This document shows, one piece after another, positions 306 through 57,265 of a DNA stretch of 64,000 nt. The notes under the pieces are model-generated. The model was not told the DNA's origin. It saw nothing but the letters and a program-made list of their open reading frames with translations, and searched no databases. Made by a program: the position numbers and the translations under genes. The stretch lies in assembly GCA_963795085.1 (NCBI GenBank), contig CAWCFX010000006.1, positions 64,001 to 128,000 of the forward strand, given 5' to 3'. The DNA comes from an uncultured Gemmatimonadales bacterium (GTDB taxonomy: Bacteria; Gemmatimonadota; Gemmatimonadetes; Gemmatimonadales; GWC2-71-9). Within the stretch, counting starts at the first letter, position 1. Every line of letters starts with the position of its first letter.

Positions 306-2720
306 TCACAATAGCGACACCGGGTCCCGGTCAATGGTCACCCGGACGTCTCCCGCGCCGGTGATCTTGCCGGCCGCGTAGCGGACCACTTTGCCGATCT
401 CCTCCGACGGGCCCTTGAGGAGGAAGTGCCAGCGCCAGCGGTCCTTGATCCTGGCCAGGGGACAGGGCGCGGGGCCCAGCAGGGTGACCGGAAGGCGGTA
501 TTTTTCAACCAGGGCAGCGCACCAGTCGGCGGCACGGAGCGCTTCTTTCGAGACCGCGGTATCGTCGGGCCCGGAGACGACCACGTTGGCGAGCGCGGTG
601 ACCGGCGGGTAGGGTGGCGAGGTGCGATGGCCGAGTTCTTCCGCCAGGAAGGAATCGGGATCGTGCCGGGCCGCCCACTGCAGGGCGTGGTGACCCGGGT
701 TCCTGGTCTGCACCACGACCCGGCCGCCGCGGGGACCTCGCCCGGCGCGGCCGGCGACCTGAGCCAGCAGCTGGAAGGTCCGCTCCGAGGAGCGAAAGTC
801 CGGCAGGTGCAGCCCGGTATCGGCGTCCACCACGCCTACCAGGGTCACGTTGGGAAAATCCAGCCCCTTGGCAATCATCTGGGTGCCGAGCAGAATGTCC
901 ACCTCGCCCCGTTCGACGGCGCCCAGGATGCGGTGGTGAGACCACTTGGAGCTGGTGGTGTCGAGGTCCATTCGCGCGACTCGGGCCTCGGGGAAACGAG
1001 CCCCGAGCATCCGCTCCAGTTGCTGGGTTCCCACGCCGCGCATCTGCTGGATGTCCTCGCCGCAGGCCTGGCACGCCGTGGGGATCGACTTTTCGAGGCC
1101 GCAGTAGTGGCAGCGGAGGGCGCGCGGCGTATGGTGGACCGTCAGGGAGATGCTGCACCGGGTACACTCCTCGACGGTGCCGCAGTCGGGGCACTGGAGA
1201 AAGGTGGCGAACCCGCGCCGGTTGAGCAGGAGCAGCACCTGCTCGCTCCGGGCCAGCGCGGCGCTCACCGCCTCGTCCAGCGGTACGCTCCACGGGACCG
1301 CCCCCGCGTCCCGGACCCGGTCGGCCGCCCGCATGTCCACGATCTCGACGGGGGGCAGCGGGCGGGCTCCGATGCGCGAGGGGAGGCGAATCACCCGGGT
1401 GCCCTCGGCCGCCCGCGCCATCGTCTCGGGGGACGGAGTCGCGCTGCCGAGGAGCAGCCGGGCGCCTTCCAGGCGGGCCCGGACCAGGGCGACGTCGCGG
1501 GCATGGTAGCGGGGCGTCTCCCCGTTCTTGTAGCTGGACTCGTGTTCCTCGTCCAGCACGATGAGACCCAGGTCCTGGACCGGCGCGAAGACTGCCGAAC
1601 GGGCACCCACCGCCACCCGGCGCTCCCCGCGGCGAAGCAGGCGCCAGGCATCCGCCCGCTCGCCGTCGGAGAGACCGCTGTGGAGCACCGCGACCTGGTC
1701 GCCAAAGGCGCCCCGGACCCGCGCGACCGTCTGCGGGGTGAGCGCGATCTCCGGCACCAGCAGGATGGCGCCGCGGCCCCGGGCGAGAACTTCGCGCACC
1801 GCCTCCAGGTACACGAAGGTCTTGCCACTGCCGGTGACTCCGAAGAGCAGGCCGCTCTCGCCGGGTCCCAGCCGGGCGACCTCCGCCAGCGCCGCCACCT
1901 GGTCGGGCGTGGCCGCCGCCGGTGGCGGCGTCGCGATTTCCTCCGCGAACGGATCCCGCACCCGTTCCGCCTGCTCCACCGTCACCAGGGACCGGTCGGC
2001 CAGCGCAGTGATGACCCCGTCGGAAAAGCCCAGTTGCTGCTTGAGATGGCGGGCCTGGGCGGTGCCGCCCAGTTCCTCCAGCGCCTCGTAGAGCCGGCGC
2101 TGCTTCGGCGCACGCTTGAACAGCTGTTCCCGCTCCACCAGGGTCAGGCGGTGCTCGCTCAGGGCAACCACGCGCTCGGTGGCGACGTTGCCGCCGGCAT
2201 CGGGTGGTTCGACCTCCAGGGTGACCGCACCGACCCGGGCTAACCGGTTGAGGGCATTCCACACCGGGCGGCGGAGGGATTTGGCCAGGGCCTGCACCGG
2301 GGCTGCCCCGCCCCGCCTCTCAAGCAGGTCGAGAATTTCCTTTCCGGTTCCGCCGGGAACCGCAGCGGCATCGGCCACCCGGGCAATGACCCGGGACGCC
2401 CCCCAGAGGCCGCCGGGCAGCACGGCCCGCAGGGTCAGGCCGAGGGGCGATCCGTAATAGCGGCTGATCCACTCGGCGGTCTTGAGCAATGCCTCCGGAA
2501 TCGCCGGCTCGGGGTCAGGCGCCGCGAGGATTTCCCGCGCCGTCATTCCAGGATCCGGGGTGTCCACCCCCACCACGATGCCGACCAGTTCCCGCTGGCG
2601 CACCGGCACCACCACCCGGGCGCCGAGGGCGACCCGGTCAGCCAGGGCAACCGGAATTTTATAGGTGTACGGTTCGGCCAGCGGTAGGGGGAGCGCGACC
2701 AGGCCGAAGCCTGTGGTCAT
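306..2720 (-). CDS. priA: Primosomal protein N' (replication restart helicase)
   Basis: GVTGSGKT, LVPEIALTPQ, DEEHE, Cys-rich CxxC cluster, QVAGRAGR; start moved to ATG 2720 (ATGA overlap with upstream stop). Confidence 0.97.
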   Translation of the reverse strand: MTTGFGLVALPLPLAEPYTYKIPVALADRVALGARVVVPVRQRELVGIVVGVDTPDPGMTAREILAAPDPEPAIPEALLKTAEWISRYYGSPLGLTLRAVLPGGLWGASRVIARVADAAAVPGGTGKEILDLLERRGGAAPVQALAKSLRRPVWNALNRLARVGAVTLEVEPPDAGGNVATERVVALSEHRLTLVEREQLFKRAPKQRRLYEALEELGGTAQARHLKQQLGFSDGVITALADRSLVTVEQAERVRDPFAEEIATPPPAAATPDQVAALAEVARLGPGESGLLFGVTGSGKTFVYLEAVREVLARGRGAILLVPEIALTPQTVARVRGAFGDQVAVLHSGLSDGERADAWRLLRRGERRVAVGARSAVFAPVQDLGLIVLDEEHESSYKNGETPRYHARDVALVRARLEGARLLLGSATPSPETMARAAEGTRVIRLPSRIGARPLPPVEIVDMRAADRVRDAGAVPWSVPLDEAVSAALARSEQVLLLLNRRGFATFLQCPDCGTVEECTRCSISLTVHHTPRALRCHYCGLEKSIPTACQACGEDIQQMRGVGTQQLERMLGARFPEARVARMDLDTTSSKWSHHRILGAVERGEVDILLGTQMIAKGLDFPNVTLVGVVDADTGLHLPDFRSSERTFQLLAQVAGRAGRGPRGGRVVVQTRNPGHHALQWAARHDPDSFLAEELGHRTSPPYPPVTALANVVVSGPDDTAVSKEALRAADWCAALVEKYRLPVTLLGPAPCPLARIKDRWRWHFLLKGPSEEIGKVVRYAAGKITGAGDVRVTIDRDPVSLL

Positions 2721-3739
2721 CGGCGGGTGACGCCCAGCCCCGGACCGGTCGGCAGGCTCACCTGGCCTCCCGCGATGCTGGCGCCCTGGAACGGATCGTC
2801 CGCCAGCAGCGCCGCCCCATCGAGGTCCACGATGTCCACCAGCGGGGTGAAATGAGCCGCCGCCGTGATGGCGAGGGAGCTTTCGATCATGCAGCCCACC
2901 ATTACCATCAGCCCGTGGGCCCGGGCCAGCGCGATCATCCGGAGCGCTTCGCGAAGGCTGCCGCACTTGGCCAGCTTGATGTTGATCCCATCCACTTTGC
3001 CGACCAGCGACGGGATGTCGGAGACGGTCTCGCAGTCTTCATCCGCGATCAGCGGGATGTCGGCGCGGCGGCGGATCTGCTCCATGCCATCCAGCTGGCG
3101 GGGCGGCAGTGGCTGTTCCAGCACCGTGACCCCGAACTCCCGGAGGACCGGCAGCATCCGGATGCTGTGCTTGACGGTCCAGCCGCAATTGGCGTCCACC
3201 CGCAGTTCCTTGTCGGTAACGTCCCGGATGGTCCGCAGGATGTCCAGGTCCTGGTCACTGCCCAGCTTGATCTTGAGGATCGGGTACTGGGCGGCCTCCG
3301 CGACCTTCTTCCGGATCATCTCCGGGGTGTCGATGCCGATGGTAAAGGTGGACCGGGGGGCCTTCGCGGGATCGAGTCCCCACAGCTGGTAAACCGGAAC
3401 CCCCAGTTTCTTCCCCACCAGGTCATGGAGCGCGGCCGACAGCGCGGCCCGGGTCGCCGGGTTCCGCTTGAGCAGGGTGAACCAGCCCAGCTCGGCGTCT
3501 TCGATCTTGAACGGGTCGTCGGGCAGCAAAGTGGCGTAGGTGTTGAGCGCCCCCAGGACCGTTTCCGTGGTTTCGCCATAGAACCTGGTCGGCGCGGCCT
3601 CGCCCCATCCCTCGAGGCCGTCCTCGTCTATCAGCTTGACCAGGACGGTCTCGTAGTCGCTGCGGCCGCCCCGGGCAATGATGAAGGGATGCCGGGTACG
3701 CAGGTTCAGCACTTCGGCTTCGAGGCGGAGACGGGACAC
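2717..3739 (-). CDS. Dipeptide (L-Ala-D/L-Glu) epimerase, enolase superfamily
   Basis: GWGEA, LKIKLG, RVDANCGW, EQP, ADE, INIKLAKCG, GCMIES, DLDG motifs. Confidence 0.9.
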   Translation of the reverse strand: MSRLRLEAEVLNLRTRHPFIIARGGRSDYETVLVKLIDEDGLEGWGEAAPTRFYGETTETVLGALNTYATLLPDDPFKIEDAELGWFTLLKRNPATRAALSAALHDLVGKKLGVPVYQLWGLDPAKAPRSTFTIGIDTPEMIRKKVAEAAQYPILKIKLGSDQDLDILRTIRDVTDKELRVDANCGWTVKHSIRMLPVLREFGVTVLEQPLPPRQLDGMEQIRRRADIPLIADEDCETVSDIPSLVGKVDGINIKLAKCGSLREALRMIALARAHGLMVMVGCMIESSLAITAAAHFTPLVDIVDLDGAALLADDPFQGASIAGGQVSLPTGPGLGVTRR

Positions 3740-3802
3740 GAAAGTTTCCTTGGGGAGCGGTGTCGGAGAATATAATGGCGCCGGCCCGGAATAGAGCGCC
3801 GC

Positions 3803-4711
3803 CTACGCCCCCAGCGCCGCCACGTGCGCGGCCACTCCCTCGGCGACCCGTTCCGGCGCGTACCCGCCTTCCAGCATGGAGAGAATCGGCACCCCGGGCA
3901 GGTGTTCCCGGAGCCGGCGGGTCAGTTCGACGTAGTGTTCCGGCTCCAGCGTGAAGCCGCCCAGCGGATCGCCGGCCATCGCGTCGAAACCGGCCGAGAT
4001 GCAGACGAGGCCCGGTGCCCACCGGGCGGTCGCGGCGGCGATGGCGTTCCACAGGTCGCCGACGTATCGCTCCGCCGGGAGCCCGGGAGGCCGGGGCACG
4101 TTGAAGATGTTGCCCACGCCTCGCTCCGATTCCGCACCGGTGCCGGGATACCAGGGCCACTGGTGCAGGGAGACGTACCGGATGCTGGCGTCCTTCTCCA
4201 CGATATCCTGCGTCCCATTGCCGTGGTGAACGTCCCAGTCGATGATGAGGACGTTACCGCAGCCTCGCGACTGGGCTTCCCGCGCGGTGACGGCGGCGAG
4301 ATTGACCAGGCAGAACCCCATCGCGTGGCTGGCGGAGGCGTGGTGGCCGGGGGGGCGGACGGCGAGGAAGGCATGTTCCCCCCGCTCGAGGGCCCCGGGC
4401 AGCGCCCCCATCGCGGCGCCGGCGGCGCCCAGGACGGCGGCCCAGCTCTGGCCGTTGAGAAAAGTGTCGGACTCGACCTGGCCGCCGCCGTGCTGGGCGA
4501 CCGCCTCCAGCCGGTCGAGGTGGGCGGCCGGATGCACGCGGAGCAACGGCTCACGGGTGGCGGGCGCCGCCTCGACCATGCGGACTCCAGGCTCGCCCGC
4601 CAGCCGCTGGAGAATCGCCGGAAGCCTCCGCACGGAGTCCGGATGGCCGGGGCCGGGATCGTGCTCCCGGCAGGCCGCGCTGGTGTACACAGTGGCGGTG
4701 GTTTCGGTCAC
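3803..4711 (-). CDS. Histone deacetylase family (Zn-dependent) protein
   Basis: RPPGHHA, GFC, DWDVHHGNGTQ, YPGTG, SAGFDA, LEGGY; GTG 4711 preceded by GGAGG. Confidence 0.93.
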   Translation of the reverse strand: MTETTATVYTSAACREHDPGPGHPDSVRRLPAILQRLAGEPGVRMVEAAPATREPLLRVHPAAHLDRLEAVAQHGGGQVESDTFLNGQSWAAVLGAAGAAMGALPGALERGEHAFLAVRPPGHHASASHAMGFCLVNLAAVTAREAQSRGCGNVLIIDWDVHHGNGTQDIVEKDASIRYVSLHQWPWYPGTGAESERGVGNIFNVPRPPGLPAERYVGDLWNAIAAATARWAPGLVCISAGFDAMAGDPLGGFTLEPEHYVELTRRLREHLPGVPILSMLEGGYAPERVAEGVAAHVAALGA

Positions 4712-4824
4712 GGCGTCCGTCCCCTCCCGCCGGATGAGACGGGCTCGCGAAGACACCCCAGGCCAGAAAAGTTGGTTCTCATGATAGAGGCGCGGCTCCT
4801 CAACCCGCTCGCCGCTGGGTGTTC

Positions 4825-5112
4825 CTACGTCCCGGGTTCGCTGTCCCTCTGCTGTACCAGTCGCCTGAGCTCGACGATCTCGGCCTGCAGCGCGTCGCGG
4901 ACCTGCGCCACTTCCGCGAGGGTCCGGGCGTAGCGGCGGGAATACACCACAATGCCGGCCGACATGAGCAGCAGGGCGACGCCGAGGGCGGCCATGAGCC
5001 AGCTCCGGAGGTACCAGGCGGCCATCAGCAACAGAATGCCGTCGAGCAGGAGCAGCCCGACGGCAATCACGGTCATGGTCCGGCGGGGAGGCCGGCCGCC
5101 GGTGGTGGTCAT
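4825..5112 (-). CDS. Small two-TM membrane protein with C-terminal coiled coil
   Basis: Two hydrophobic stretches then heptad-like LAEVAQVRDALQAEIVELRRLV; 7 nt after upstream stop. Confidence 0.7.
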   Translation of the reverse strand: MTTTGGRPPRRTMTVIAVGLLLLDGILLLMAAWYLRSWLMAALGVALLLMSAGIVVYSRRYARTLAEVAQVRDALQAEIVELRRLVQQRDSEPGT

Positions 5113-5119
5113 CGGCGGG

Positions 5120-5377
5120 TCAACGCACTGCCTGCCGGCGCCGGGGCAGCATGATGAGCGCGGCGTTGCGCACCAGGCCCAGGTCGGCCAGGCTCTTGTC
5201 CTCGTTCAGCAGCTGGGCGCCCCGATACTTGACCACGTAGCGGTCCGGATCGGCAGGAACCCGGCCGAGGTCGAGGACCTGCTGCTTGAGCTGGGCCAGC
5301 GGGGTGTCGCCGGAGATATCCAGATGGAACTCGTCCCACACGTCAGTCAACATGACCCGCACCGGCATGGTGGTCAT
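5120..5377 (-). CDS. Ubiquitin-like beta-grasp protein (EsaB/YukD-like), 85 aa
   Basis: By-eye alignment to ubiquitin pattern; ATG 5377 overlaps upstream TGA. Confidence 0.75.
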   Translation of the reverse strand: MTTMPVRVMLTDVWDEFHLDISGDTPLAQLKQQVLDLGRVPADPDRYVVKYRGAQLLNEDKSLADLGLVRNAALIMLPRRRQAVR

Positions 5378-5649
5378 CGCTGCGGCTCCAGGGCGGGCGT
5401 GGGAAGCGTTGACAGGAAGCGGCTCACCGCCTGGTCGAACAGGAGCGTCGAGGCGCGAATCCGGGTGACTCCGTCCGCCGCCGTTACCGCGAAGACGACT
5501 TCTTCCCCGCCCTGTCCGCGCAGCACCAGGAATCCGGGGCCTTCCTTTTCCAGGTAGGCCGCCGTGAGCGGCACCCGCTCCGCGAAAAAGGTCCGGGCGC
5601 GCGCCAGCACCTCGGGCGGCTCCACCGTGGTCACGTACTCGTGGATCAT
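5374..5649 (-). CDS. Hypothetical protein, 91 aa
   Basis: ATGA overlaps at both ends; globular alpha/beta-like composition. Confidence 0.75.
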   Translation of the reverse strand: MIHEYVTTVEPPEVLARARTFFAERVPLTAAYLEKEGPGFLVLRGQGGEEVVFAVTAADGVTRIRASTLLFDQAVSRFLSTLPTPALEPQR

Positions 5650-6791
5650 GGCCGCTTTCTCCAGACAGAAATGCCGGTGGGCTGGGCGGGGACCGCAATG
5701 GTGGCGACGATCGCCTTGGCAGCCAGGTCGATCATGTCCACCGACCCCGGGTCGGCCCCGATGGATTCGGCGGTAATATAGGCGTAGCGGCCGTCGGGCG
5801 AGAATGCGACTCCGTGGACGATCTTCTTGGACGTGGGAATGCGGGCGATCTCGGTGAGAGTGCGGGTGTCCACCAGGCTCACGCTCTGCGCCTTCTTGTT
5901 GGTGACCACGACCAGCCCCCCATCGGGGCTGGGTTCCACGTTATAGGCCCCGGTGCCGACCGGGATCTCCCGGGTCAGCGTCAGCGTCGCCGCGTCCCAG
6001 ACCTGGAGGCTGTTGCCGTAGTTGCACGCGGCATAGAGGGTCCGGTCGTCGGGAGAGACGGCGACGAAGGTCGGCGCACACTCCCGGGTCAGGGCCGGGT
6101 TGAGCGGCGGCGCCGGCGCGCCCCCGGGGGCCGGAGCCGACAGCGCCTGGTGGCCGGCGTGCGTCCCGGTCGCGGCGGCCTGGTGGCCGGTCCCCGTCCG
6201 CACCCGCCGGGTGATCGCCAGCTCGGCCACGTCCAGCTCCAGCAACTCGTCGCTGTGCATGCAGGAGATGTACACCCGGGTACCGGCATGGTTGGACTTG
6301 ACCCCGTGCGGCATGTCGCAGGCGGGGAGGTTGGTAATGTTGGTCATGGTGGGCGTGTGCACCACCGAGACGGAATTGACCCGGGGCCGGTCGCCGTGAA
6401 AGTCGGAGTTGGCGACGAAGGCCAGTTCGCCGTCCGGCGTGGTGACGACCGTGGTGGGAAACAGTTCTACCGGCGCCCGGCCCGTGACGCTGTCGCCGTC
6501 GGCGGCCATCTGCCAGAGCGATCCATAGGGCTGCCCGTGGGCCATGGTGATGTAATAGAACCGCTGGTCCGGAGAGACGAAGATGTTGTGGGGGCCATCG
6601 ATATCGGCGGGCATGATGCCGACCGGCACTACCCGGTCCACTTTCAGCGACTGGGGACCCGGCTGGATCCAGGTGACGATGTCGCCCGATTCACTGACCA
6701 CGCCCAGCTGATAATTGAAATCGGCGCCCTGCGCCGGAGCGGCCGAGGGGGCCACCGCGAGCAGCAGCAAGGCGAGCGAGTACGGTTTCAT
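5646..6791 (-). CDS. Exported YncE/YVTN-type beta-propeller protein
   Basis: Signal peptide MKPYSLALLLLAVAPSAAPAQ; repeated (S/T)PDG blades; ATG 6791. Confidence 0.85.
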   Translation of the reverse strand: MKPYSLALLLLAVAPSAAPAQGADFNYQLGVVSESGDIVTWIQPGPQSLKVDRVVPVGIMPADIDGPHNIFVSPDQRFYYITMAHGQPYGSLWQMAADGDSVTGRAPVELFPTTVVTTPDGELAFVANSDFHGDRPRVNSVSVVHTPTMTNITNLPACDMPHGVKSNHAGTRVYISCMHSDELLELDVAELAITRRVRTGTGHQAAATGTHAGHQALSAPAPGGAPAPPLNPALTRECAPTFVAVSPDDRTLYAACNYGNSLQVWDAATLTLTREIPVGTGAYNVEPSPDGGLVVVTNKKAQSVSLVDTRTLTEIARIPTSKKIVHGVAFSPDGRYAYITAESIGADPGSVDMIDLAAKAIVATIAVPAQPTGISVWRKRP

Positions 6792-6812
6792 GCGAGCCCT
6801 GGGTACGGGACA

Positions 6813-6861
6813 GTGCAGAGTGCAGCGTGCAGCGTGCAGAGTGCAGAGTGCAGAGTGCAGA
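6813..6861. repeat. Heptamer tandem repeat (GTGCAG[A/C])x7
   Basis: Read directly; lies in the spacer just after the stop at 6869. Confidence 0.95.
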
Positions 6862-6868
6862 GTGAAAA

Positions 6869-7567
6869 CTACCGGGGTTGGGGGCGGGCCGCCACCTCCA
6901 CCTGGGCCGGTTCCATCCGGCGAAACAGGTCCAGCAGGGCCGGTTTTCGGCGGAGTACGATGACCAACTGGCCCGGCGGCGGCTCGTCCAGGCCGGTCAC
7001 CACCAGGTATGCGGGGAGCGGGAGACCCCCGGGTAACGCGACCCGGTAGCCGGTCCCGTGCCAGGCGAAGTCCAGGGTGGCCGGGGTCCGCCGGACCACC
7101 CGGTCGAGAAAGAAGTCGTCGTCCACCTGGTACACCCCTGGGACCACTTCCTCTCCGCCCAGGAAGAAGAGCGGGTCGAAACCCTCGCCATCCTGGCGGG
7201 CGAAGTTCTCCTCTGCCGCACGGTCGAAGTCCTCCAGCGCATCGGCGCGGGCCCGCCACTCGAGGTGGTGTCGCAGCTCGTGGGTCAGGGTCTGGAAGGC
7301 CTCTTCCTCCCAGTCAAACTCCGGGTCCAGCCGGGCCAGGGCCCGGAAGGAACCGTGGTACAGCACGATGCGGCTCTGGATATCCTGGAGGGCGGCGTCG
7401 TCGGCGAGCGGGCTGGGAATGCATTCCCCCAGGGTGTACACATCGGCCCGGAGCGGATGCGGCAGCACCGCGGCGGCCACCGTGATCTCGGCAACGCCCT
7501 CGAGGAAGTGCGAGGGCACCTGCTCGGCCAACTGGCGCACCAGGGCTTCAAATGCGGCGAACTGCAT
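6869..7567 (-). CDS. Zincin-like metallopeptidase family protein
   Basis: RIVLYHGSF followed by TLTHELRHH (HExxH). Confidence 0.8.
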   Translation of the reverse strand: MQFAAFEALVRQLAEQVPSHFLEGVAEITVAAAVLPHPLRADVYTLGECIPSPLADDAALQDIQSRIVLYHGSFRALARLDPEFDWEEEAFQTLTHELRHHLEWRARADALEDFDRAAEENFARQDGEGFDPLFFLGGEEVVPGVYQVDDDFFLDRVVRRTPATLDFAWHGTGYRVALPGGLPLPAYLVVTGLDEPPPGQLVIVLRRKPALLDLFRRMEPAQVEVAARPQPR

Positions 7568-7576
7568 CCCCTCCGC

Positions 7577-8863
7577 TCACGGCGCGGCGGCGCCTTCGAG
7601 CGCCTGCCGCAGGTCGGCGATGATGTCCTCGAAGTGCTCGACCCCAACGGACAGGCGGATCATACCGGGCGTAATGCCCATCCTGGCCTGGAGCTCCGGA
7701 GGAATGTCGGCGTGAGTCATGGTCCCCGGGTGCTCGGCCAGCGACTCGGTCCCTCCCAGGCTGACGGCGAGCTTGATCATGGCCAGTCGGTTGAGCACCC
7801 GGAAGGCGGCCGGTTCCCCGCCGTGCACGGTAAAGGCGATGATCGATCCGGGCCCGCTGCACTGGCGGGCGTAGACCGGCTGCATGGGATGGTCGGCCGG
7901 GAGCAGGCCCAGGAAGGACACCAGGGCCACGGCGGGGTGGCCCTGGAGAAAGTCGGCCACGTAGCGGGCGTTCTTCATCTGGGCCGTCATCCGCATCTTC
8001 AGCGTCTCGAGGCTCCGCATGAGGAGCCAGCCGGTCCAGGGGCCGGCCATGGTCCCCATGAACGTGCGCAGGGTGCGTACCGCCTTCATGGGTTCGGTCC
8101 GGCCCAGGCAGGCACCGGCAATGACGTCGCTGTGGCCCCCGATGAACTTGGTGGCGGAATACAGCACCAGGTCGGCGCCGTGGCGGAGCGGCTGTTGCCA
8201 TATCGGGCCGAGAAAGGTGTTGTCCACCAGGAGGGGCGGCGGCGGGGCGGCGCCGGCGAGCCGGTCGAGCAAGGCCCGGGTGCCCGCGATGTCCACCAGG
8301 TCGTTGGTCGGGTTGGCCGGCGTCTCCACGAGGCAGGCGGCGATGCGGCGCCCTGCGACCCGCCGCCCCAGCTCCGCTTCCAGGTCGCCCGGCTGGCGCC
8401 CGGCGGCGAAGCCCACCGGGTGCACGCCCAGTTCAGGCAGGAAGTGGCGGATAAAGTGATCGGTTCCGCCATAGAGCGGCTCGCTGTGGAGGAGGACATC
8501 GCCCGGCCGAACGAAGGCGAGCAAGGTGGTGGTGATGGCGGCCATCCCGCTTTCAAACACCGCCGCGCTCTCGGCCCCGTCCCACACCGTGAGCCGGTCT
8601 TCGAGAATCTCCAGGTCGGGATTGTTGAGCCGGCTGTAGATGAGGCCGGTGGCTTCCCCCGGCTCGGCTTCGCGAAGGCCGTACGCCACCGCGAAGAAAT
8701 CCTTGCCCGCTTCCGCCGATTCGAAGACGAAGGTGGAGGTCTGAAAGATCGGGCACTTGAGGGCGCCTTCGGAGAGCCGCGGATCGTACCCGTAGCTCAT
8801 CATCAGGCTCTCTGGCCGAAGCGGGTGTCCGTCCGGCAGGGTCAGGTGCTTCTCGGAGGTCAT
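7577..8863 (-). CDS. Cystathionine gamma-synthase / methionine gamma-lyase family PLP enzyme
   Basis: PIFQTSTF, YSRLNNP, SGMAAI, ETPANPT, VDNTF, YSATKFIGGHSD, AVSLGG. Confidence 0.92.
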   Translation of the reverse strand: MTSEKHLTLPDGHPLRPESLMMSYGYDPRLSEGALKCPIFQTSTFVFESAEAGKDFFAVAYGLREAEPGEATGLIYSRLNNPDLEILEDRLTVWDGAESAAVFESGMAAITTTLLAFVRPGDVLLHSEPLYGGTDHFIRHFLPELGVHPVGFAAGRQPGDLEAELGRRVAGRRIAACLVETPANPTNDLVDIAGTRALLDRLAGAAPPPPLLVDNTFLGPIWQQPLRHGADLVLYSATKFIGGHSDVIAGACLGRTEPMKAVRTLRTFMGTMAGPWTGWLLMRSLETLKMRMTAQMKNARYVADFLQGHPAVALVSFLGLLPADHPMQPVYARQCSGPGSIIAFTVHGGEPAAFRVLNRLAMIKLAVSLGGTESLAEHPGTMTHADIPPELQARMGITPGMIRLSVGVEHFEDIIADLRQALEGAAAP

Positions 8864-8877
8864 CGGTTGCAGGTCCT

Positions 8878-10209
8878 TCAGCCGGCGAGGTGAGTCTCCA
8901 GCCAGGCGGCGAGGTTCCCCTCCTGAACCCGTTCCTGCTGCATGGAGTCGCGGTGGCGCACCGTGACCATGCCGCCGGCCAGGGTTTCACCGTCGATGGT
9001 GATGCCAAAGGGGGTGCCGGCTTCGTCCATCCGGCGGTAGCGCCGCCCGATGGCGCCGCCGTCGTCGTAGAACAGGTTGAACCGGCGCTTGAGGTCGTGG
9101 TAGATCTGGTCGGCCCGCTCCGGCATGCCGTCCTTCTTGACCAGGGGGAACACGCCGGCCTTGATGGGCGCGATGGCGGGATGGAACCCCAGCACCACCC
9201 GGGTCTCCCCCTCGACGACTTCCTCGCGATAGGCATCCACCAGGACGGTCAGGGTGACCCGGTCGGCACCCGCGGAGGTCTCCACGATGAGCGGCAGGTA
9301 GCGCTCGTTGGCGGCCTGGTCGAAGTATTCCAGCTTCTTGCCAGAGTACTCCTGGTGGCGACCCAGGTCGAAGTCCCCCCGGTTGTGGATCCCTTCGATT
9401 TCGTTCCAGCCGAAGGGAAACTCGTACTCGATGTCGTAGGCGGCCCGGGCGTAGTGGGCCAGCTCGGTGCCGGCATGCTGGTGCCACCGGAGCCGCTCCG
9501 GCTTGAGACCCAGCGCATGGTGCCAATCCATGCGCCACGCCCGCCACCGCTCGAACCACTCCATGTCGGTACCCGGCTTGACGAAGAATTGCATTTCCAT
9601 CTGCTCGAACTCGCGGGTCCGGAAGATGAAGTTGCCCGGGGTGATCTCATTCCGGAACGCCTTGCCGATCTGGGCGATACCGAAGGGAATTCGCTGCCGG
9701 GATCCCTGCAGCACGTTGAGGTAGTTCACGTAGATGCCCTGCGCCGTTTCCGGGCGCAGGTAGACCACCGCGGCCGACTCCTCGACCGGGCCCATGAAGG
9801 TCTTGAACATCAGGTTGAACATGCGGGGTTCGGTCAACAGGCATGCGGTGTGCTCGCCCGGGTGTTTGCTGGGCTTCTGGGGGCAGGCCGCGTCCGCGAT
9901 CTTGTCGGCCCGGAAACGGGCCTTGCAGGTCTTGCAGTCCACCAGCGGATCGGTGAAGCCGGCCACGTGACCGGAGGCTTCCCAGACCCGGGGATGCATG
10001 AGAATCGCGGCATCGAGCCCCTCGATGTCGTCCCGCGCGTGCACCATGGCCCGCCACCAGCGGTCCTTGACGTTTTTTTTGAGCTCGACGCCCAGAGGTC
10101 CGTAGTCCCAGACCGACCCCAGGCCGCCATAGATCTCGGAAGACTGAAAAACGAACCCCCGCCGTTTGGCCAGGGAGACCAGCTTGTCCATCACGGTTTG
10201 TTCGGCCAT
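8878..10209 (-). CDS. glyQS: Glycine--tRNA ligase, homodimeric type
   Basis: [44 protein letters not shown]. Confidence 0.97.
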
Positions 10210-10563: not shown

Positions 10564-11166
10564 ATGAGAGCTCGCACCCCAATTGCCGCACCTGCCTGTC
10601 CCGCCCGTCCGGCGGGACGCCGTGGCTTCACGCTCATCGAACTGCTGGTCGTGGTGGCGGTGATCGCCACCCTCAGCGCGATCGCGATCCCCCGGATCGA
10701 CCTGGACGCCTACAAGGTGAACGCCGCGGTCCGGGCGGTCACCAGCTCGCTGACCTACGCCCAGCGGCTGGCGGTCAGTCTCCAGCACGATGTCCGGGTC
10801 GCGTTCGATTCCGCCAACAGCCGGCTCCGGGTGCACGAGGACCTCGACAACGACAATATCATGGACCCGGCGGAGCGGGTCACGTTTACCCCGCTCGACA
10901 ACGGGGTGATCTTCGGCCTCGGCCCCGCCCCCGCGTTCACGGTGGGCGCCAACACGTTCAATTTCAACGGCCAGCAGGGCGGCCTGCCGATGCTGGTCTT
11001 CCGCCGTGACGGGTCGGTCAGCGAGAACGGGGGCTTTTACCTGAACGCGACCCGGGCCGTCGCCCAGGGCAACCCCAGCAAGACCCGCGCGGCCGAGATC
11101 ATCCGGTCCAGCGGGCGGATCACCTGGTATTCCTATGGCAGTTTCGCGTGGGTGAGAGGAAACTGA
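10564..11166 (+). CDS. FimT/GspH-like minor type IV pilin
   Basis: Prepilin site RRG/FTLIELL plus hydrophobic helix. Confidence 0.88.
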   Translation: MRARTPIAAPACPARPAGRRGFTLIELLVVVAVIATLSAIAIPRIDLDAYKVNAAVRAVTSSLTYAQRLAVSLQHDVRVAFDSANSRLRVHEDLDNDNIMDPAERVTFTPLDNGVIFGLGPAPAFTVGANTFNFNGQQGGLPMLVFRRDGSVSENGGFYLNATRAVAQGNPSKTRAAEIIRSSGRITWYSYGSFAWVRGN

Positions 11167-11167
11167 C

Positions 11168-11551
11168 ATGAGCAACCGCCGCGGCTTCACTCTGATCGAA
11201 ATCATGATCGCCCTGGTAATCCTGACGATCGTCTCCGTCGGGCTGGGCAAGTTCGTCGCGACCTTCCTGCACACCGTCGGCACCTCGACGGCGAAGACGG
11301 TGGCCACCGCCGTGGCGCAGGAACAGCTGGAGTTGATCCGGGCCGATCCCGGCTACGCGACGCTGGTAACCAACTACAACAACCTGACGACCGCCGGGTT
11401 TCCCGGGTACACCAATATGACCCGGACCGTGCGGGTGGTACGCACCACCGGCGCCACTCCCCGGCGCGACTACACCAAGGTGACCGTCCAGGTCACGGAG
11501 CCGACCATGGGAACCCCCGTCAACGTAACGATCGTGGTGGCCGCGCCATGA
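11168..11551 (+). CDS. PilV-like minor type IV pilin
   Basis: MSNRRG/FTLIEIM, QEQLELIR. Confidence 0.88.
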   Translation: MSNRRGFTLIEIMIALVILTIVSVGLGKFVATFLHTVGTSTAKTVATAVAQEQLELIRADPGYATLVTNYNNLTTAGFPGYTNMTRTVRVVRTTGATPRRDYTKVTVQVTEPTMGTPVNVTIVVAAP

Positions 11552-12727
11552 AGACGATCCCGGATCCACCGCGCCGAGGCCGGCTTCTCGCTGGTCGAGT
11601 TGCTGATCGCCATGGTGGTGCTGAGCCTGGTGATGGGATCGGCACTGAGCGTGTTCCGCTCCCAGAGCAAGAACTTCCGGGTGGGCGGCACCAAGATGGA
11701 ACTGACCCAGAACATCCGCTACGCCATCAGCACCGTGGACCGGGTGCTGCGGACCACCGGGGCGGGCACCGGCACCAACCAGCCCATGCTGGTGTACGCG
11801 GCCACCGACGCGGTGGTCTTCAATGCCAACTTCGCGACTAACATCGCCGACGGCATCGCGGTGTACGTGAACCCCGACCTGCCGGCCGGGGCCATCGACG
11901 CCATGACGACCGGCACCCAGATCACCCTGCCGGGGACGGCGATCGTGTACCCCACCGCCAATTACTTCTGGGGAGGGCTCACGCCCAGCCGGGCGGAGAC
12001 GATGTCCTTTTTCTTCCGCCCCGACTCCACCACGACGGCTGACCCGAACGATTTTATCCTGTTCCAGCAGATCAACGCGACGGCCCCGGAGCTGGTCGCC
12101 CGGAACATCCGGGCCTATCCGGGCCGCCCGTTCTTCGAATACTGGTACGACAGCGTGAACGTCTCCGGAGTGACTTTCTCCCGGCAGCTGGCCGCGGCCC
12201 GGATCCCGGTGCGCCATTCGGTCGCGCTGCACGGCGACCCGGCCGACGTCGGGACCTCGGCGCTGGCCGACAGCATCCGGATGGTCCGCATCAACCTGGT
12301 CGTTACCAACGGCATCATGGGGGTCGACTCGCTCAGCCGCCGGCTCTCGACCATGATCCGGCTGCCCAACAACGGGCTGGTCCAGCTGCGCACCTGCGGC
12401 GACCCGCCGATCTTCACCAGCGCGGTGGTGGCCACGCCCAACCTGGTGGGCGATCCCCCGGCGGTCACCCTGACCTGGCTGCCCTCGGTGGACGAGACCT
12501 CGGGCGAGCAGGACGTCTCCCAGTACAATGTCTATTTCCGGCTGGTCGGCGGCCCCCTGACCTGGGATCCTTTCCTGTCGCTGGCCGCGGGCCAGGCCAA
12601 CTACAGCGTCACCAGCGGCGCCGGCCTGGTGGTCGGCAACACCTATGAATACGCCGTCGCGGCCCAGGACTGCTCGCCCGCCGAGTCGCCGCTCAGCGTC
12701 AGCAACCAGGCCATGGTGAACCCATAA
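11548..12727 (+). CDS. PilW-like minor pilin with C-terminal FN3-like domain; the ATG at 11548 is out of frame with the body
   Basis: AG/FSLVELL at 11579-11605 in the frame of ORF 11600..12727; no canonical in-frame start upstream of it. Confidence 0.75.
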
Positions 12728-12756
12728 TGCAGGAACGTCCCCGACCGGAGCCAACT

Positions 12757-14631
12757 ATGCTGACCGCCCGCAAGAGCGACGAGCGCGGTGTCGCGCTCAT
12801 CCTGACCCTGTTCCTGGCCCTGGTCGTGGCGGGGATGGCGATCGGGGTCATTCTCATGGCCAGCAACAGCAACCTGATCGCCAAGTTCCACTCGACCGAG
12901 GCCATGATGGCGGCGGCCGCCGATGCCGGCCTGGAGCAGGGGCGCGACACCCTGAACGGCACGCCGACGCTCATCCCGGTGGGCCAGGGCTTCGACACCC
13001 TGGAACTGAACGCCCCCGTCCGGGATGCCAACAACGTGGTCATCCCCGGCTTTACCCGCTCCCTCTACGCCGGCGAGAACGGCGACACCACCGGGCAGTT
13101 CGGCGTCTTCGCCAGCGTCATCTCGGTGATCAGCAACGTCCGCGGCGCGGTGGTGGTGCGGCGGATGCAGCTCAAGCAGGATTCGTTCTCCCGCTTCGCC
13201 CGGTTCTTCAACACCTGGGCCTGTTGCGCCTGGGGTAATACCGAGGTGGTCTTCGGCCCGGTGCACTCCAACCAGGGCATGGCGGTACAGACCCGGGGCG
13301 GCTTCCCGGGCGCGACCTTCTGGGGGCCGGTCACCACCGTCGGCAATGTCACCAACCAGGCTCACGGCAACTGGAACGGCGGGATCCAGACCGGCGCGCC
13401 GCCGATCGCCTTCCCCACCACCCAGACGCTCAACAACCTGCAGGCGTTTGCGACCACCGGGCAGACCGTGGTGACCGGCTACGGGACGCTCAACGCCGCC
13501 GACCCCGACACCCGCGTCGAGTTTGTCGCGTTGGACATGAACGGCGACGGCGACACCCAGGACCAGAACGAAGGGTTCTACCGGGTCTTCAAGGCCTGGC
13601 CCGGCGGGTCGGCGACGGTGCAGTCCCAGCGGCGCAGTTACGTGAGCGCCCGGCGGTGGCAGTGGGGTGACCTCGGCACCACGACCTATCCCGCGGGAAC
13701 CACGGCTGCCTCCGACCCCAACATCTATTCGCCGAACTGCGGCGGTACCTACGCCGGCGACTGGTGGACCGCGGACTCCGTGTACGTGCGGCGGCTGGGC
13801 ACCGTGGCCCAGAACGTGGCCGCCGTCCGGGCCGCGCTCGCCAGCGGCACCCGGCGCTGCTATCTCGGCGGAGACCGCCGGCTCTACCCCGACTCGCTCA
13901 ACCGGATCGCCGACCTGAACGGATACTGGGTGCCCTGGGCCGGATGGGCCGGGGCACCGCCCGCCGCGCTCATCGCGGCCGTCCAGCCCATGACGGTCGC
14001 GGGCCAGGAAACGGCGGTGGCTTCAACCTTCATACCCATCACCCGGGCGATGAACCCCAACTTCAAGGGGATCATCTTCGTCAACGGCAGCGTCGCGATC
14101 AGCGGCACGATCCGCGGCCGGGTCACCGTGGTGACCACCGGGGACGTCACCCTGGCCGACGACCTGATCTACGTGCAGCCGCCCGGCACCAACTGCGCCG
14201 ACATCCTGGGCGTCCTCACCCAGATGGATGCCCTGATCGAGAACAACAACATCAACACCCCGTTCCGGAACAACAACGTCTGGACGGTGCAGTTCGACGA
14301 TACGCCCGACGAGATCTTCCACGGGTTCTTCCTCACCCTCGGCCTCATGGAAGGGGAAAGCTTCGCCGGCGACCCGGCGGTGACCGCGCCGGAGAACTGC
14401 GGCGGCAAGAGCCGGGGCTGCAAGTCCATCATCGGCGGCACCATCCAGCAGGGCATCGCCGCGACATTTACCGGCAACAGCGGCTGGGCCGAACAGGACA
14501 CCTATGACGGCTGCGGCGTCACCGCCCCGCCGCCTTACTATCCGACCACCGGCCGCTTTACCAAGAACCGGTATTACGAGATCGACCCGGTCGGCTTCGA
14601 CGTGGCGACGTGGTTTGTAAACAACCAGTAG
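12757..14631 (+). CDS. Large PilX-like pilin with extended Cys-containing C-terminal domain
   Basis: DERG/VALILTL (no Glu5), AADAGLEQ, GPVHSN; GGAG before ATG 12757. Confidence 0.82.
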   Translation: MLTARKSDERGVALILTLFLALVVAGMAIGVILMASNSNLIAKFHSTEAMMAAAADAGLEQGRDTLNGTPTLIPVGQGFDTLELNAPVRDANNVVIPGFTRSLYAGENGDTTGQFGVFASVISVISNVRGAVVVRRMQLKQDSFSRFARFFNTWACCAWGNTEVVFGPVHSNQGMAVQTRGGFPGATFWGPVTTVGNVTNQAHGNWNGGIQTGAPPIAFPTTQTLNNLQAFATTGQTVVTGYGTLNAADPDTRVEFVALDMNGDGDTQDQNEGFYRVFKAWPGGSATVQSQRRSYVSARRWQWGDLGTTTYPAGTTAASDPNIYSPNCGGTYAGDWWTADSVYVRRLGTVAQNVAAVRAALASGTRRCYLGGDRRLYPDSLNRIADLNGYWVPWAGWAGAPPAALIAAVQPMTVAGQETAVASTFIPITRAMNPNFKGIIFVNGSVAISGTIRGRVTVVTTGDVTLADDLIYVQPPGTNCADILGVLTQMDALIENNNINTPFRNNNVWTVQFDDTPDEIFHGFFLTLGLMEGESFAGDPAVTAPENCGGKSRGCKSIIGGTIQQGIAATFTGNSGWAEQDTYDGCGVTAPPPYYPTTGRFTKNRYYEIDPVGFDVATWFVNNQ

Positions 14632-17254: not shown

Positions 17255-18334
17255 CTACGCCTTTGGCTTCTTCTTGGGCTTGGGCTCCGGCGCCGCCGGC
17301 AGGCCCTCCGGGTCGGCGATGGCGGCCCGGGCGGTTTCCAGCGTGATGCTGCCGTCGTCCACCAGGCGCATGAGGTGCTGCTCCTGCGTCCACATGCCCT
17401 CGTCACTGCCCTGCTCGATGATCTCGGGAAGATCGCCCAGCCCCTGGGAGTCGCGCACCGCGGCCCGGACTTCGGGCGTCGCGATCACCACTTCCATCGC
17501 GGCCACCCGTCCCTTGCCGTCCTTCCTGGCCAGGAGCTGCTGCGAAATGACCGCACGGATGTTATCGGCCAGGCGCATCCGTCCGATCTGCCGCTCCTCC
17601 CGGGAGAACATCGCCAGCAGGCGGGCCAGCGCCGCCGTGGCATCAGGGCTGGGCATCGCCGCGATGACCAGGTGACCCATCTCGGCGCCTTTGAGGGCGG
17701 AATCCAGGGTCTCCGGGTCGCGGATCTCGCCGATCAGTACAACGTCAGGATCCTGCCGCAGCGCCGCCGCCAGGCCCACGCTGAACGACTCGGTATCGAC
17801 GCCCACGTCCCGCTGGGTCACCGAGCAGTTGATGTCCCGGTGCAGGAACTCGATGGGGTTCTCGATGGTGACGATGTGCTTGTGCCGGGACCGGTTGATG
17901 TGGTTGATCATGGCGGCGATGGTGCTGGTCTTGCCCGACCCGCTGACGCCGGTGACCAGCACAAGTCCCTTGTCCGACTCCGCGATCCGGGCCAGCGTAT
18001 CCGGCAACTGGAGGCTCTCCAGGGTGGGCACGTCAAACGGAATGACCCGCATGACCACCATGAACGAGGACCGCTGTTTCAGCACGTTGACCCGGAACCG
18101 GCCCACACCGGGCATCCCCCAGGAGCAGTCGAAATCCTTCAGTCGGTCGATTTTGTCCCGGTCCTCTTCACTGGCGATGAGCTTGAGGGCGATCGCCCGG
18201 GTCTGGTCCGGCGTCAGCCGCTGCTTGGTGAGGGGCACCAGCTTGCCGTTGATCCGGGCGCGGAAGACATCCCCCGCCTTGATCAGCAGGTCGGAGGCTC
18301 CCCGCTCCACTGCCGCCTTGATGATTTTTTCCAT
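17255..18334 (-). CDS. PilT/PilU-family ATPase with atypical Asp and His boxes
   Basis: GASDL, RFRVN, GSGKTST, ALRQDPDV, GEIRD. Confidence 0.9.
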   Translation of the reverse strand: MEKIIKAAVERGASDLLIKAGDVFRARINGKLVPLTKQRLTPDQTRAIALKLIASEEDRDKIDRLKDFDCSWGMPGVGRFRVNVLKQRSSFMVVMRVIPFDVPTLESLQLPDTLARIAESDKGLVLVTGVSGSGKTSTIAAMINHINRSRHKHIVTIENPIEFLHRDINCSVTQRDVGVDTESFSVGLAAALRQDPDVVLIGEIRDPETLDSALKGAEMGHLVIAAMPSPDATAALARLLAMFSREERQIGRMRLADNIRAVISQQLLARKDGKGRVAAMEVVIATPEVRAAVRDSQGLGDLPEIIEQGSDEGMWTQEQHLMRLVDDGSITLETARAAIADPEGLPAAPEPKPKKKPKA

Positions 18335-18346
18335 GGATCTCCGCCC

Positions 18347-34655: not shown

Positions 34656-35858
<1,203 letters not shown>

Positions 35859-35877
35859 AAGTCCGACTCCGCGAGTA

Positions 35878-35964
35878 AGTACTGAGTGCTGAGTGCTGAG
35901 TGCTGAGTGAACGGCCCTGATTCGAGTATCGCTACTCAGTCCTCAGTCCTTTCGACTCAGTACT
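35878..35964. repeat. Inverted heptamer arrays ([A/G]CTGAGT)x4 / (NCTCAGT-like)x4
   Basis: Read directly in fusA-tuf spacer. Confidence 0.9.
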
Positions 35965-38067: not shown

Positions 38068-38085
38068 GATCATCCCTATTCAGCG

Positions 38086-48041: not shown

Positions 48042-52556
<4,515 letters not shown>

Positions 52557-52617: not shown

Positions 52618-57090
<4,473 letters not shown>

Positions 57091-57114
57091 CTTCACTCTC
57101 ATGCAACACAAATG

Positions 57115-57160
57115 GCCCCGTCGCGTGCCTCCCGCCCAATGCGGGAGGACCTCGCGGGGC
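57115..57160 (-). promoter_or_regulatory. Long hairpin in rplL-rpoB spacer (possible attenuator)
   Basis: GCCCCG/CGGGGC enclosing CCTCCCGC/GCGGGAGG, followed by ATTTGTGTT. Confidence 0.45.
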
Positions 57161-57265
57161 TGCTGGTACGACGGATTAGGAAGTGCTTCTCAATGTCATG
57201 TCGTCTCACCGAAGCAGGGGAGCCTGAAGCCCGGGCGGCTGAACGCCATCCCGGGTCGGCTTCGC

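Follow-up and report, generated by a model that had tools for sequence, protein, structure and literature searches.

We analysed a window of 64,000 nucleotides (nt) from an uncultured Gemmatimonadales bacterium (assembly GCA_963795085.1; contig CAWCFX010000006.1, positions 64,001 to 128,000 of the forward strand), in which an earlier note, made from the sequence alone, had pointed out a small ubiquitin-like protein (hereafter referred to as Ubl). The gene encoding Ubl and the partner gene located immediately upstream of it, here named p91, were as follows:

5120..5377, minus strand: Ubl gene, 85 aa plus stop codon; ATG at 5377, TGA at 5120-5122
5374..5649, minus strand: p91, 91 aa; stop codon overlapping the Ubl ATG; invariant RGQGGEE loop; net charge -2

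Ubl represents a new phylum-restricted family of the ubiquitin-like beta-grasp superfamily, one that has a conserved tail and a partner family of its own.

The open reading frame (ORF) called on the minus strand at this locus spans 5120-5698 and encodes 192 aa, and its C-terminal part was exactly the peptide quoted in the earlier note. The G+C content by codon position was 0.73/0.38/0.88 at 5120-5377, which matched the pattern of real genes in the window, and 0.83/0.74/0.50, a non-coding pattern, further upstream in this open frame (5378-5698). This upstream stretch was coding in another frame, that of p91 (91 codons; G+C content at third codon positions [GC3] 0.85), the TGA of which overlapped the Ubl ATG as ATGA. 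In addition, GGAG was found 9-12 nt 5' of the Ubl ATG. From the difference in codon-position G+C content and the presence of p91 in the other frame, the feature was therefore defined as an 85-codon minus-strand gene at 5120-5377, which bore out the statement that the true start was hidden inside a longer ORF call. The 192-aa call is an artefact of high G+C content. Because the G+C content of the window was as high as 64-70%, many long spurious ORFs were present, and these, including the 192-aa call, are what could speak for Ubl itself being an open frame that arose by chance from the high G+C content. This explanation was refuted by the coding-type codon bias, by the conservation of the protein, whose length and position stay fixed at identities as low as 41%, and by the confident fold prediction described below. 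Public gene calls of 166-173 aa at the same locus in other genomes (P0184 and P0187) contained an Arg/Pro/Gly-rich N-terminal part, which is a wrong-frame reading through p91, that is, the same over-extension as in the 192-aa ORF. The Ubl locus is thus one that gene callers mis-annotate in GC-rich genomes. No promoter-like site was found in a promoter scan of 2600-7700, and a terminator scan of the same interval gave terminator-like sites only at chance level.

As a single sequence, Ubl matched the ubiquitin family of Pfam (PF00240) with an E value of 5e-5 and 23.4 bits, which did not reach the gathering cut-off of 25.4, and showed weaker matches to UBL_UBAC1 and YukD. Among the 23 members of the Ubl family alignment, PF00240 was matched by eight (E <= 0.01, best 1.8e-6), UBL_UBAC1 by nine and YukD by four at the same threshold, and DUF2604 by one (E 0.0075). 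The best match in a sequence search of PDB was polyubiquitin (5vix, E 0.0027). Searching 1.84 billion representative sequences with the Ubl family profile gave 395 matches at E <= 1e-3, including long proteins with multiple ubiquitin-like repeats such as P0183, in which 15 stretches were matched. The language-model features of ESM Atlas placed Ubl among assorted ubiquitin-like families, with TmoB and DUF2604 as the nearest named clusters (0.91-0.93).

The AlphaFold2 (AF2) model of Ubl, built from the 23-sequence alignment, had a predicted local distance difference test score (pLDDT) of 89, and only the last seven residues were of low confidence. The predicted order of elements was strand-strand-helix-strand-strand-strand, which corresponds to a ubiquitin-type beta-grasp. 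With this model, Foldseek returned at least 500 PDB chains at E <= 1e-3, and the top matches were ubiquitin variants, the BilA ubiquitin-like protein (8tyx_A), NEDD8, and ISG15, with template modelling (TM) scores of 0.74-0.85. The likeness to ubiquitin and the beta-grasp fold claimed in the earlier note, which had proposed a fold prediction as a check, were accordingly upheld by the AF2 confidence and the Foldseek matches. Residues R7, V8, W14, D15, L19, K31, L35, K50, G53, A54, G67, N71, L77, R81, and V84 were invariant in the family; the W14-D15 loop lay at the position of the Leu8 loop of ubiquitin in the alignment with the PDB hit. The body of Ubl was acidic, and its tail carried a charge of +4.

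The C-terminus of Ubl was PRRRQAVR, and no Gly was present anywhere in P78-R85. The residues L-P-R-R-R, with which the last strand ends, aligned with L-R-L-R of ubiquitin, and the position of the ubiquitin G-G was occupied by Q-A, followed by V-R. The absence of a di-Gly tail, as claimed from the single sequence, extended to the family, with GG found in the last eight residues of 0/79 relatives from genome contigs. The last residue of these relatives was R in 72, K in four, H in two and L in one, and the commonest tails were RRRRPVR (22) and ARRQPVR (18). The tail consensus was basic (R-R-x-P-V-R), with R81 and V84 being the invariant residues. A second clade of approximately 108 aa, which has an N-terminal extension, showed approximately 30-40% identity to the window Ubl in the body. 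The positions common to both were limited to the core W-D, K, G, and E, and the terminus of the 108-aa clade was still R-R-R-R-P-V-R. Retention of the tail in this divergent clade argues that it is under selection, and its conservation to the last residue across such divergence that it is functional and unlikely to be removed.

A word-index search identified 58 clusters of Ubl homologues (82-91 aa), and the only taxon-named one was from Gemmatimonadota. A scan of genome contigs found 162 Ubl relatives, 80 of which were kept for locus comparison; 79 of these 80 loci were titled Gemmatimonadota, Gemmatimonadales, Gemmatimonadaceae, or Gemmatimonas, and the other one (L078) was titled only 'uncultured bacterium'. 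Genomes of cultured Gemmatimonas also have the locus (e.g., L037). In 401 sampled Gemmatimonadota genomes, the Ubl profile matched 286, nearly always with one copy each (these tallies include the unpublished genomes G057, G182, and G157). By family, here coded f1 to f12, matches were found in 161/165 genomes of f1, 86/94 of f2, 5/5 of f3, 2/2 of f5, 29/30 of f6, and 2/70 of f7, and the same profile search found none in f4 and f8-f12. The two matches in f7 were weak and probably spurious, and the one inspected (L092) fell in a MraZ-like ORF. Some of the f2 genomes negative for Ubl had the divergent 108-aa form (L122 from genome G036), and L122 was the basis for the taxonomic placement of the 108-aa clade. 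The pattern of p91 mirrored that of Ubl, with matches in 53/53 genomes of f1, 28/28 of f2, 1/1 of f3, 1/1 of f5, and 5/5 of f6. Ubl is inherited vertically as a core-like gene, in single copy, within a part of one phylum, and is not a mobile or defence gene. Going by the listings and abstract openings returned, a full-text literature search found no publication on the Ubl family.

The product of p91 was assigned to no Pfam or NCBIfam family. Its homologue clusters (2105) were all unnamed or 'hypothetical' and were from Gemmatimonadota where labelled, and ESM Atlas gave Gemmatimonadota hypothetical clusters only. The AF2 model of p91 (pLDDT 90) showed the order strand-helix-four strands-helix. 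Foldseek matches of this model were weak (best E 1.7e-3, none at E <= 1e-3), and the p91 sequence had no match below E 0.5 in PDB. A comparison with 48,161 chains by VIA-align ranked the CIPK14 regulatory domain first (2zfd_B; Z 9.7, root-mean-square deviation [rmsd] 1.8, 80 residues) and the KA1 domain of Chk1 second (5wi2_B; Z 9.2). For p91 only these two entries stood out, as Z 7-8 is common background of this tool, and the other KA1/AMPK-alpha C-terminal domains (SAD, MARK, Kcc4, and AMPK) fell in the background range with Z 7.2-8.4. The p91 model may be KA1-like, as the KA1, CIPK-regulatory and AMPK-alpha C-terminal domains appear to have its two-layer strand-helix-four strands-helix fold, but p91 is a protein on its own with no kinase attached, and the identity was 5-15% with no sequence similarity. 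A further background-level match, to be taken as a lead only, was the C-terminal domain of a Thermus 'MoaD-related protein' (1v8c_A 89-165; Z 8.0, rmsd 1.8, 66 residues), which is fused to a beta-grasp domain.

By tblastn, p91 was located immediately upstream of Ubl in 79/80 loci, and the exception (L005) was cut by the contig end. The p91 stop and the Ubl start overlapped by four bases in 58/78 loci and were separated by 5-8 nt in 14 more. Because Ubl is translationally coupled to a partner gene in this way, its description as 'stand-alone' in the earlier note was misleading; the accompanying statement that no type VII secretion system (T7SS) or E1 gene lies nearby was correct, and a Pfam scan of the neighbouring genes detected no E1, E2, JAB or T7SS gene beside Ubl. 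The RGQGGEE loop was exactly conserved in p91 of 75/78 loci of the window's clade. Binding of the Ubl tail to this loop was considered and was weakened by a locus without Ubl (L123, see below) that keeps the motif, though motif and tail co-vary between clades. At L038:5695-6255, p91 and Ubl were fused in frame into a protein of 187 aa, the sole case among 79 loci, which reflects a natural fusion or else a mistake in the assembly of this metagenome-assembled genome.

The genes surrounding p91 and Ubl in the window were as follows:

8878-10209, minus strand: hisS
7577-8863, minus strand: Cys/Met pyridoxal phosphate-dependent (PLP) enzyme
6869-7567, minus strand: Zincin_1-like putative metallopeptidase, 232 aa (PF06262, E 8.2e-5, 22.9 bits against a cut-off of 22.4)
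5646-6791, minus strand: secreted YVTN-type beta-propeller protein, 381 aa, with the N-terminal signal-like stretch MKPYSLALLLLAVAPSAAPAQG; stop codon overlapping the p91 ATG (ATGA)
4825-5112, minus strand: TM95, 95 aa, starting 7 nt after the Ubl stop codon; GC3 0.91
3803-4756, minus strand: HDAC-family (arginase/deacetylase fold) enzyme, 317 aa (PF00850, E 4.7e-72, full length)
2717-3739, minus strand: MR/MLE enolase-superfamily enzyme, 3' of the HDAC gene
306-2966, minus strand: priA

Searches of 80 related loci by tblastn found the HDAC-family gene in 79, the MR/MLE gene in 75, priA in 72, hisS in 61, the zincin gene in 44, the propeller gene in 41, and TM95 in 34. The only locus without the HDAC-family gene (L071) was cut by the contig end. 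The neighbourhood survey of homologues that the earlier note had proposed thus found p91 and the HDAC-family gene in 79/80 loci each. The beta-propeller gene was a variable member of the operon, found upstream in 41/80 loci. In TM95, a basic N-terminus precedes two hydrophobic helices, after which come an RRY motif and an amphipathic helix at the C-terminus; no family was found above cut-off in Pfam and NCBIfam scans. Its membership in LPG_synthase_TM (E 0.0035) or the SCO2097 family (E 0.0065) was not accepted, with scores far below the cut-offs. A hydropathy script detected a two-helix ORF of 80-99 aa between Ubl and the HDAC-family gene in 60/78 loci, to which L014 was added by tblastn, and this ORF often overlapped the Ubl stop codon by four bases or one base. 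In the 17 loci without TM95, the distance from the Ubl stop to the HDAC start ranged from -4 to +80 nt. The 108-aa clade was represented by 17 metagenome loci, of which 16 contained p91 and 14 had the HDAC-family gene directly downstream; no membrane ORF was present in these loci, and the outer neighbours were partly different.

The HDAC-family enzyme had no NCBIfam equivalog. The best NCBIfam match of the MR/MLE enzyme was N-acetyl-D-Glu racemase DgcA (244.7 bits), which did not reach the cut-off of 400. The MR/MLE enzyme and the adjoining HDAC-family enzyme might be an N-acyl-amino-acid racemase/deacylase pair unrelated to Ubl. The beta-propeller protein showed partial NCBIfam matches to the hydrazine synthase beta subunit and to lactonase-type NosZ, far below the cut-offs.

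Bacterial ubiquitin-fold proteins are mostly understood as sulfur carriers, as conjugated defence tags, or as T7SS accessories. The Ubl family fits none of these three roles and is nearest in sequence to true ubiquitin. The ubiquitin/NEDD8 family (PF00240) was the best match of Ubl in both sequence and structure and shares its beta-grasp topology and length. Unlike these proteins, Ubl lacks Gly-Gly, with Q/R-P-V-R instead, has a Pfam score below the cut-off, and is encoded without an E1, E2, E3, or deubiquitinase context; it is also bacterial and, in the collections searched, confined to one phylum. The ubiquitin-like protein of BilA (8tyx_A; TMq 0.81, rmsd 1.8, 82 columns) has a bacterial ubiquitin-like fold as well. 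Genes for E1, E2, and JAB are part of operons of the Bil/Bub type, which function in phage defence and encode a ubiquitin-like protein with a terminal Gly, whereas Ubl has no adjacent E1, E2, or JAB gene, ends with Arg, and is a core single-copy chromosomal gene. Moreover, no defence-system model of PADLOC matched Ubl, p91, TM95, the HDAC-family enzyme, or the zincin-like protein. TmoB and DUF2604 are small bacterial ubiquitin-like proteins that serve as leads for Ubl from language-model features, without alignment support, and in contrast to TmoB no monooxygenase genes were found near Ubl.

YukD/EsaB is the textbook example of a non-conjugated, presumably non-covalently acting bacterial ubiquitin-like protein. 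Like Ubl, it is small and has no functional di-Gly, and the Pfam match of Ubl to this family was weak (18.2 bits against 27). This similarity, the YukD matches of 4/23 family members at E <= 0.01, and the small membrane protein encoded 3' of Ubl could point to Ubl as a YukD/EsaB-type accessory of a T7SS encoded elsewhere. However, no T7SS genes adjoin Ubl, the neighbours being p91, the two-helix membrane protein, and the HDAC-like enzyme. The window's genome, which is 93% complete, contained no WXG100 protein (0/1), and neither did any of 101 sampled genomes of the order (0/101), in a search that was positive for the controls Bacillus subtilis, Thermotoga maritima, and Corynebacterium glutamicum. 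FtsK_SpoIIIE gave one single-domain match in the genome (828-aa frame), and the only gene matching YukD (PF08817) was that of Ubl itself, at a sub-threshold 16.2 bits. The T7SS explanation is thereby essentially excluded, and a constant co-occurrence of homologues with a T7SS, which the earlier note had named as contradicting its proposal, was not observed.

MoaD/ThiS (PF02597) shares the beta-grasp fold with Ubl, and a paralogue of p91 is located 5' of MoaD as p91 is of Ubl. Ubl differs from this family in having no PF02597 match (E <= 1), no GG, and no adjacent MoaE, ThiG, or ThiF gene. Ubl is not a member of YukD/EsaB, ThiS/MoaD, or Bil-type systems, the defining features of each being absent.

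The p91 paralogue was found by the p91 profile in families f5, f6, and f8, and aligned with p91 in hhalign with 99.3% probability (E 4.5e-20). It was located directly 5' of a MoaD gene, the product of which ended with I-P-P-V-[SA]-G-G, in 5/5 inspected loci; L120 was from an unpublished genome (G097), and the count without it was 4/4. The loci were as follows:

L118, ~5950-6830: p91 paralogue and MoaD
L119, 5800-6427: p91 paralogue and MoaD
L121, 5908-6498: p91 paralogue and MoaD
L124, 6211-6731: p91 paralogue and MoaD
L120: p91 paralogue and MoaD

MoaE and MoaA followed MoaD in L118, L119, L120, and L124. Organism-named records of the paralogue were from Longimicrobium or Gemmatimonadota. In the window's own genome, MoaD followed an HU gene, without the p91 paralogue.

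Distant relatives of both Ubl and p91 were found in families f5 and f6, in which a p91-like gene was immediately 5' of the Ubl-like gene in 4/4 loci. The Ubl-like genes were as follows:

L093:7779-8051: Ubl-like gene
L094:8045-8362: Ubl-like gene
L095:7843-8109: Ubl-like gene
L096:4836-5096: Ubl-like gene

Comparison of f5/f6 with the window's clade by hhalign gave 98.6% probability for Ubl (E 7e-16) and 97.1% for p91 (E 6e-11). The tail of the f5/f6 Ubl-like proteins was Y-D-[LM]-x-H-x-x-F-[RKE]-G with a single terminal Gly, and their p91-like partners had no RGQGGEE loop. None of hisS, propeller, zincin, HDAC-family, MR/MLE, and priA genes was found within 8 kb in the four loci. The survival of the pair in f5/f6 without an HDAC-family gene nearby indicates that p91-Ubl is a robust unit and that the link to the HDAC-family gene is specific to Gemmatimonadales. 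Further, the location of three p91 branches directly 5' of a beta-grasp gene suggests that p91 proteins are dedicated partners of beta-grasp proteins.

These relationships bear on the possibility that Ubl acts covalently, as a sulfur carrier or modifier activated by a lone MoeB/ThiF-type E1, perhaps after trimming of its tail, e.g., by the Zincin_1-like protein. The genome search for conjugation genes suggested in the earlier note found one ThiF-family E1, a MoeB-like protein of 384 aa with a rhodanese-type C-terminus. Along with this E1, the single terminal Gly of the f5/f6 clade, the p91 paralogues beside MoaD-MoaE-MoaA, and the putative metallopeptidase encoded upstream in 44/80 loci are in favour of covalent action. 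However, the E1 gene was on another contig, beside an aspartase/fumarase-like gene, and no E2 or JAB gene was adjacent to Ubl. The genome had one Prok-JAB match of 22.6 bits, which did not reach the cut-off of 25, and no match to UQ_con (eukaryote-type E2), a result that was uninformative since the control was silent as well. The two ThiS/MoaD genes of the genome were at other loci, in ordinary thiamine and molybdopterin contexts. An hhalign comparison of Ubl with Gemmatimonadota MoaD gave a probability of 4%, so that Ubl is not a recent derivative of MoaD. The tails without GG in all 79 relatives, with no Gly in P78-R85 of the window Ubl, also speak against covalent action, and the final Arg in 72/79 argues against tail removal. 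Taken together, covalent action appears improbable.

We infer instead, tentatively and with confidence slightly short of even, that Ubl is a non-conjugated subunit of a module consisting of p91, Ubl, usually a membrane anchor, and the deacylase; binding, lack of conjugation, and a regulatory role are the inferred parts. In this proposal, Ubl would remain in the cytoplasm without being conjugated to targets, and p91 and Ubl would be produced in fixed proportion by translational coupling, the p91 stop codon overlapping the Ubl start codon. In Gemmatimonadales, the pair would be co-transcribed with the HDAC-family zinc deacylase, usually with the gene of the small two-helix membrane protein in between. 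With its conserved face (W14-D15 loop, K50, and N71) and its Arg-rich tail, Ubl may dock either to p91 or to the deacylase, or to the two together. Docking would occur at the membrane in loci with the anchor protein, and it may regulate, tune, or target and localise the deacylase. The basic N-terminus of TM95 and the RRY motif after its helices would put its C-terminal helix in the cytoplasm. The 'non-conjugated adaptor of an uncharacterised module' of the earlier note has thus gained a defined module, p91-Ubl-(two-helix membrane protein)-HDAC-like enzyme; the adaptor role and the absence of conjugation are still presumptive, and the sister clade ends in Gly. It is also conceivable, but in our view rather unlikely, that p91 constitutes a new Gemmatimonadota-specific class of partners, one for MoaD and one for Ubl, and that p91 and Ubl together form a non-covalent switch on the deacylase at the membrane.

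Several observations weigh against the four-part module. The whole stretch from hisS to priA was syntenic across the order, and the adjacency of Ubl and the HDAC-family gene could therefore be inherited gene order. All Ubl relatives were from one phylum, so that the loci are not independent. In the f5/f6 genomes, an orthologue of the HDAC-family enzyme (43-49% identity) was present but far from the p91/Ubl pair, and the single terminal Gly of that clade would allow covalent chemistry there. In addition, a locus of genus g65 (L123 from genome G099; ~5271-6465, minus strand) contained no Ubl, and p91 with its RGQGGEE loop was followed after ~30 nt by the HDAC-family gene. The Ubl profile matched none of the five listed g65 genomes. 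Since L123 keeps p91 and HDAC without Ubl, Ubl is dispensable for what these two proteins do.

Only the p91-Ubl pair may be functional and the HDAC-family gene a syntenic bystander, with the tail binding, for example, nucleic acid or acidic lipid, or with the pair serving in chaperoning. The synteny of the whole region fits this explanation, as do the p91-Ubl association being the sole one kept in f5/f6, where the HDAC-family gene is elsewhere, and the pairing of the p91 paralogue with MoaD without any HDAC-family gene. It is less easily reconciled with the distance of only -4 to +80 nt between the Ubl stop and the HDAC start in 17 loci, with the HDAC-family gene being kept after the 108-aa form in 14/17 loci despite the different other neighbours, and with p91 abutting the HDAC-family gene in L123, which is without Ubl. 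We consider a pair acting without the deacylase, the chief rival of the module, possible but doubtful.

In the Ubl family, the conjugation end of ubiquitin is replaced by a strictly conserved tail, and the protein is tied to a new small family that also accompanies MoaD. If Ubl binds as proposed for the module with the deacylase, it would be a tractable case from bacteria in which a ubiquitin fold serves for docking alone, and it would offer a first way into the function of an HDAC-family enzyme conserved across an abundant, little-studied soil phylum. Should p91 and Ubl form a switch, they would represent a bacterial ubiquitin-fold regulator acting by binding and not by tagging, and both its recognition tail and the fold of its receptor would be new.

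Elsewhere in the window, a plus-strand stretch at 10564-14631 comprised two pseudopilin-like genes (N_methyl motif and weak GspH match) and, after these, two ORFs (375 and 634 aa), which showed coding-type GC3 and matched no Pfam family at E <= 0.001. At 17255-18346, the minus strand encoded an ATPase of the T2SSE type. The region 26500-57200 on the minus strand corresponded to a core translation/transcription cluster, in which EF-Tu (34656-35942), EF-G (35968-38079), rpoC (48042-52556), and rpoB (52618-57189) were confirmed by Pfam, and many small ORFs with high GC3 at 26.5-34.5 kb resembled ribosomal protein genes.

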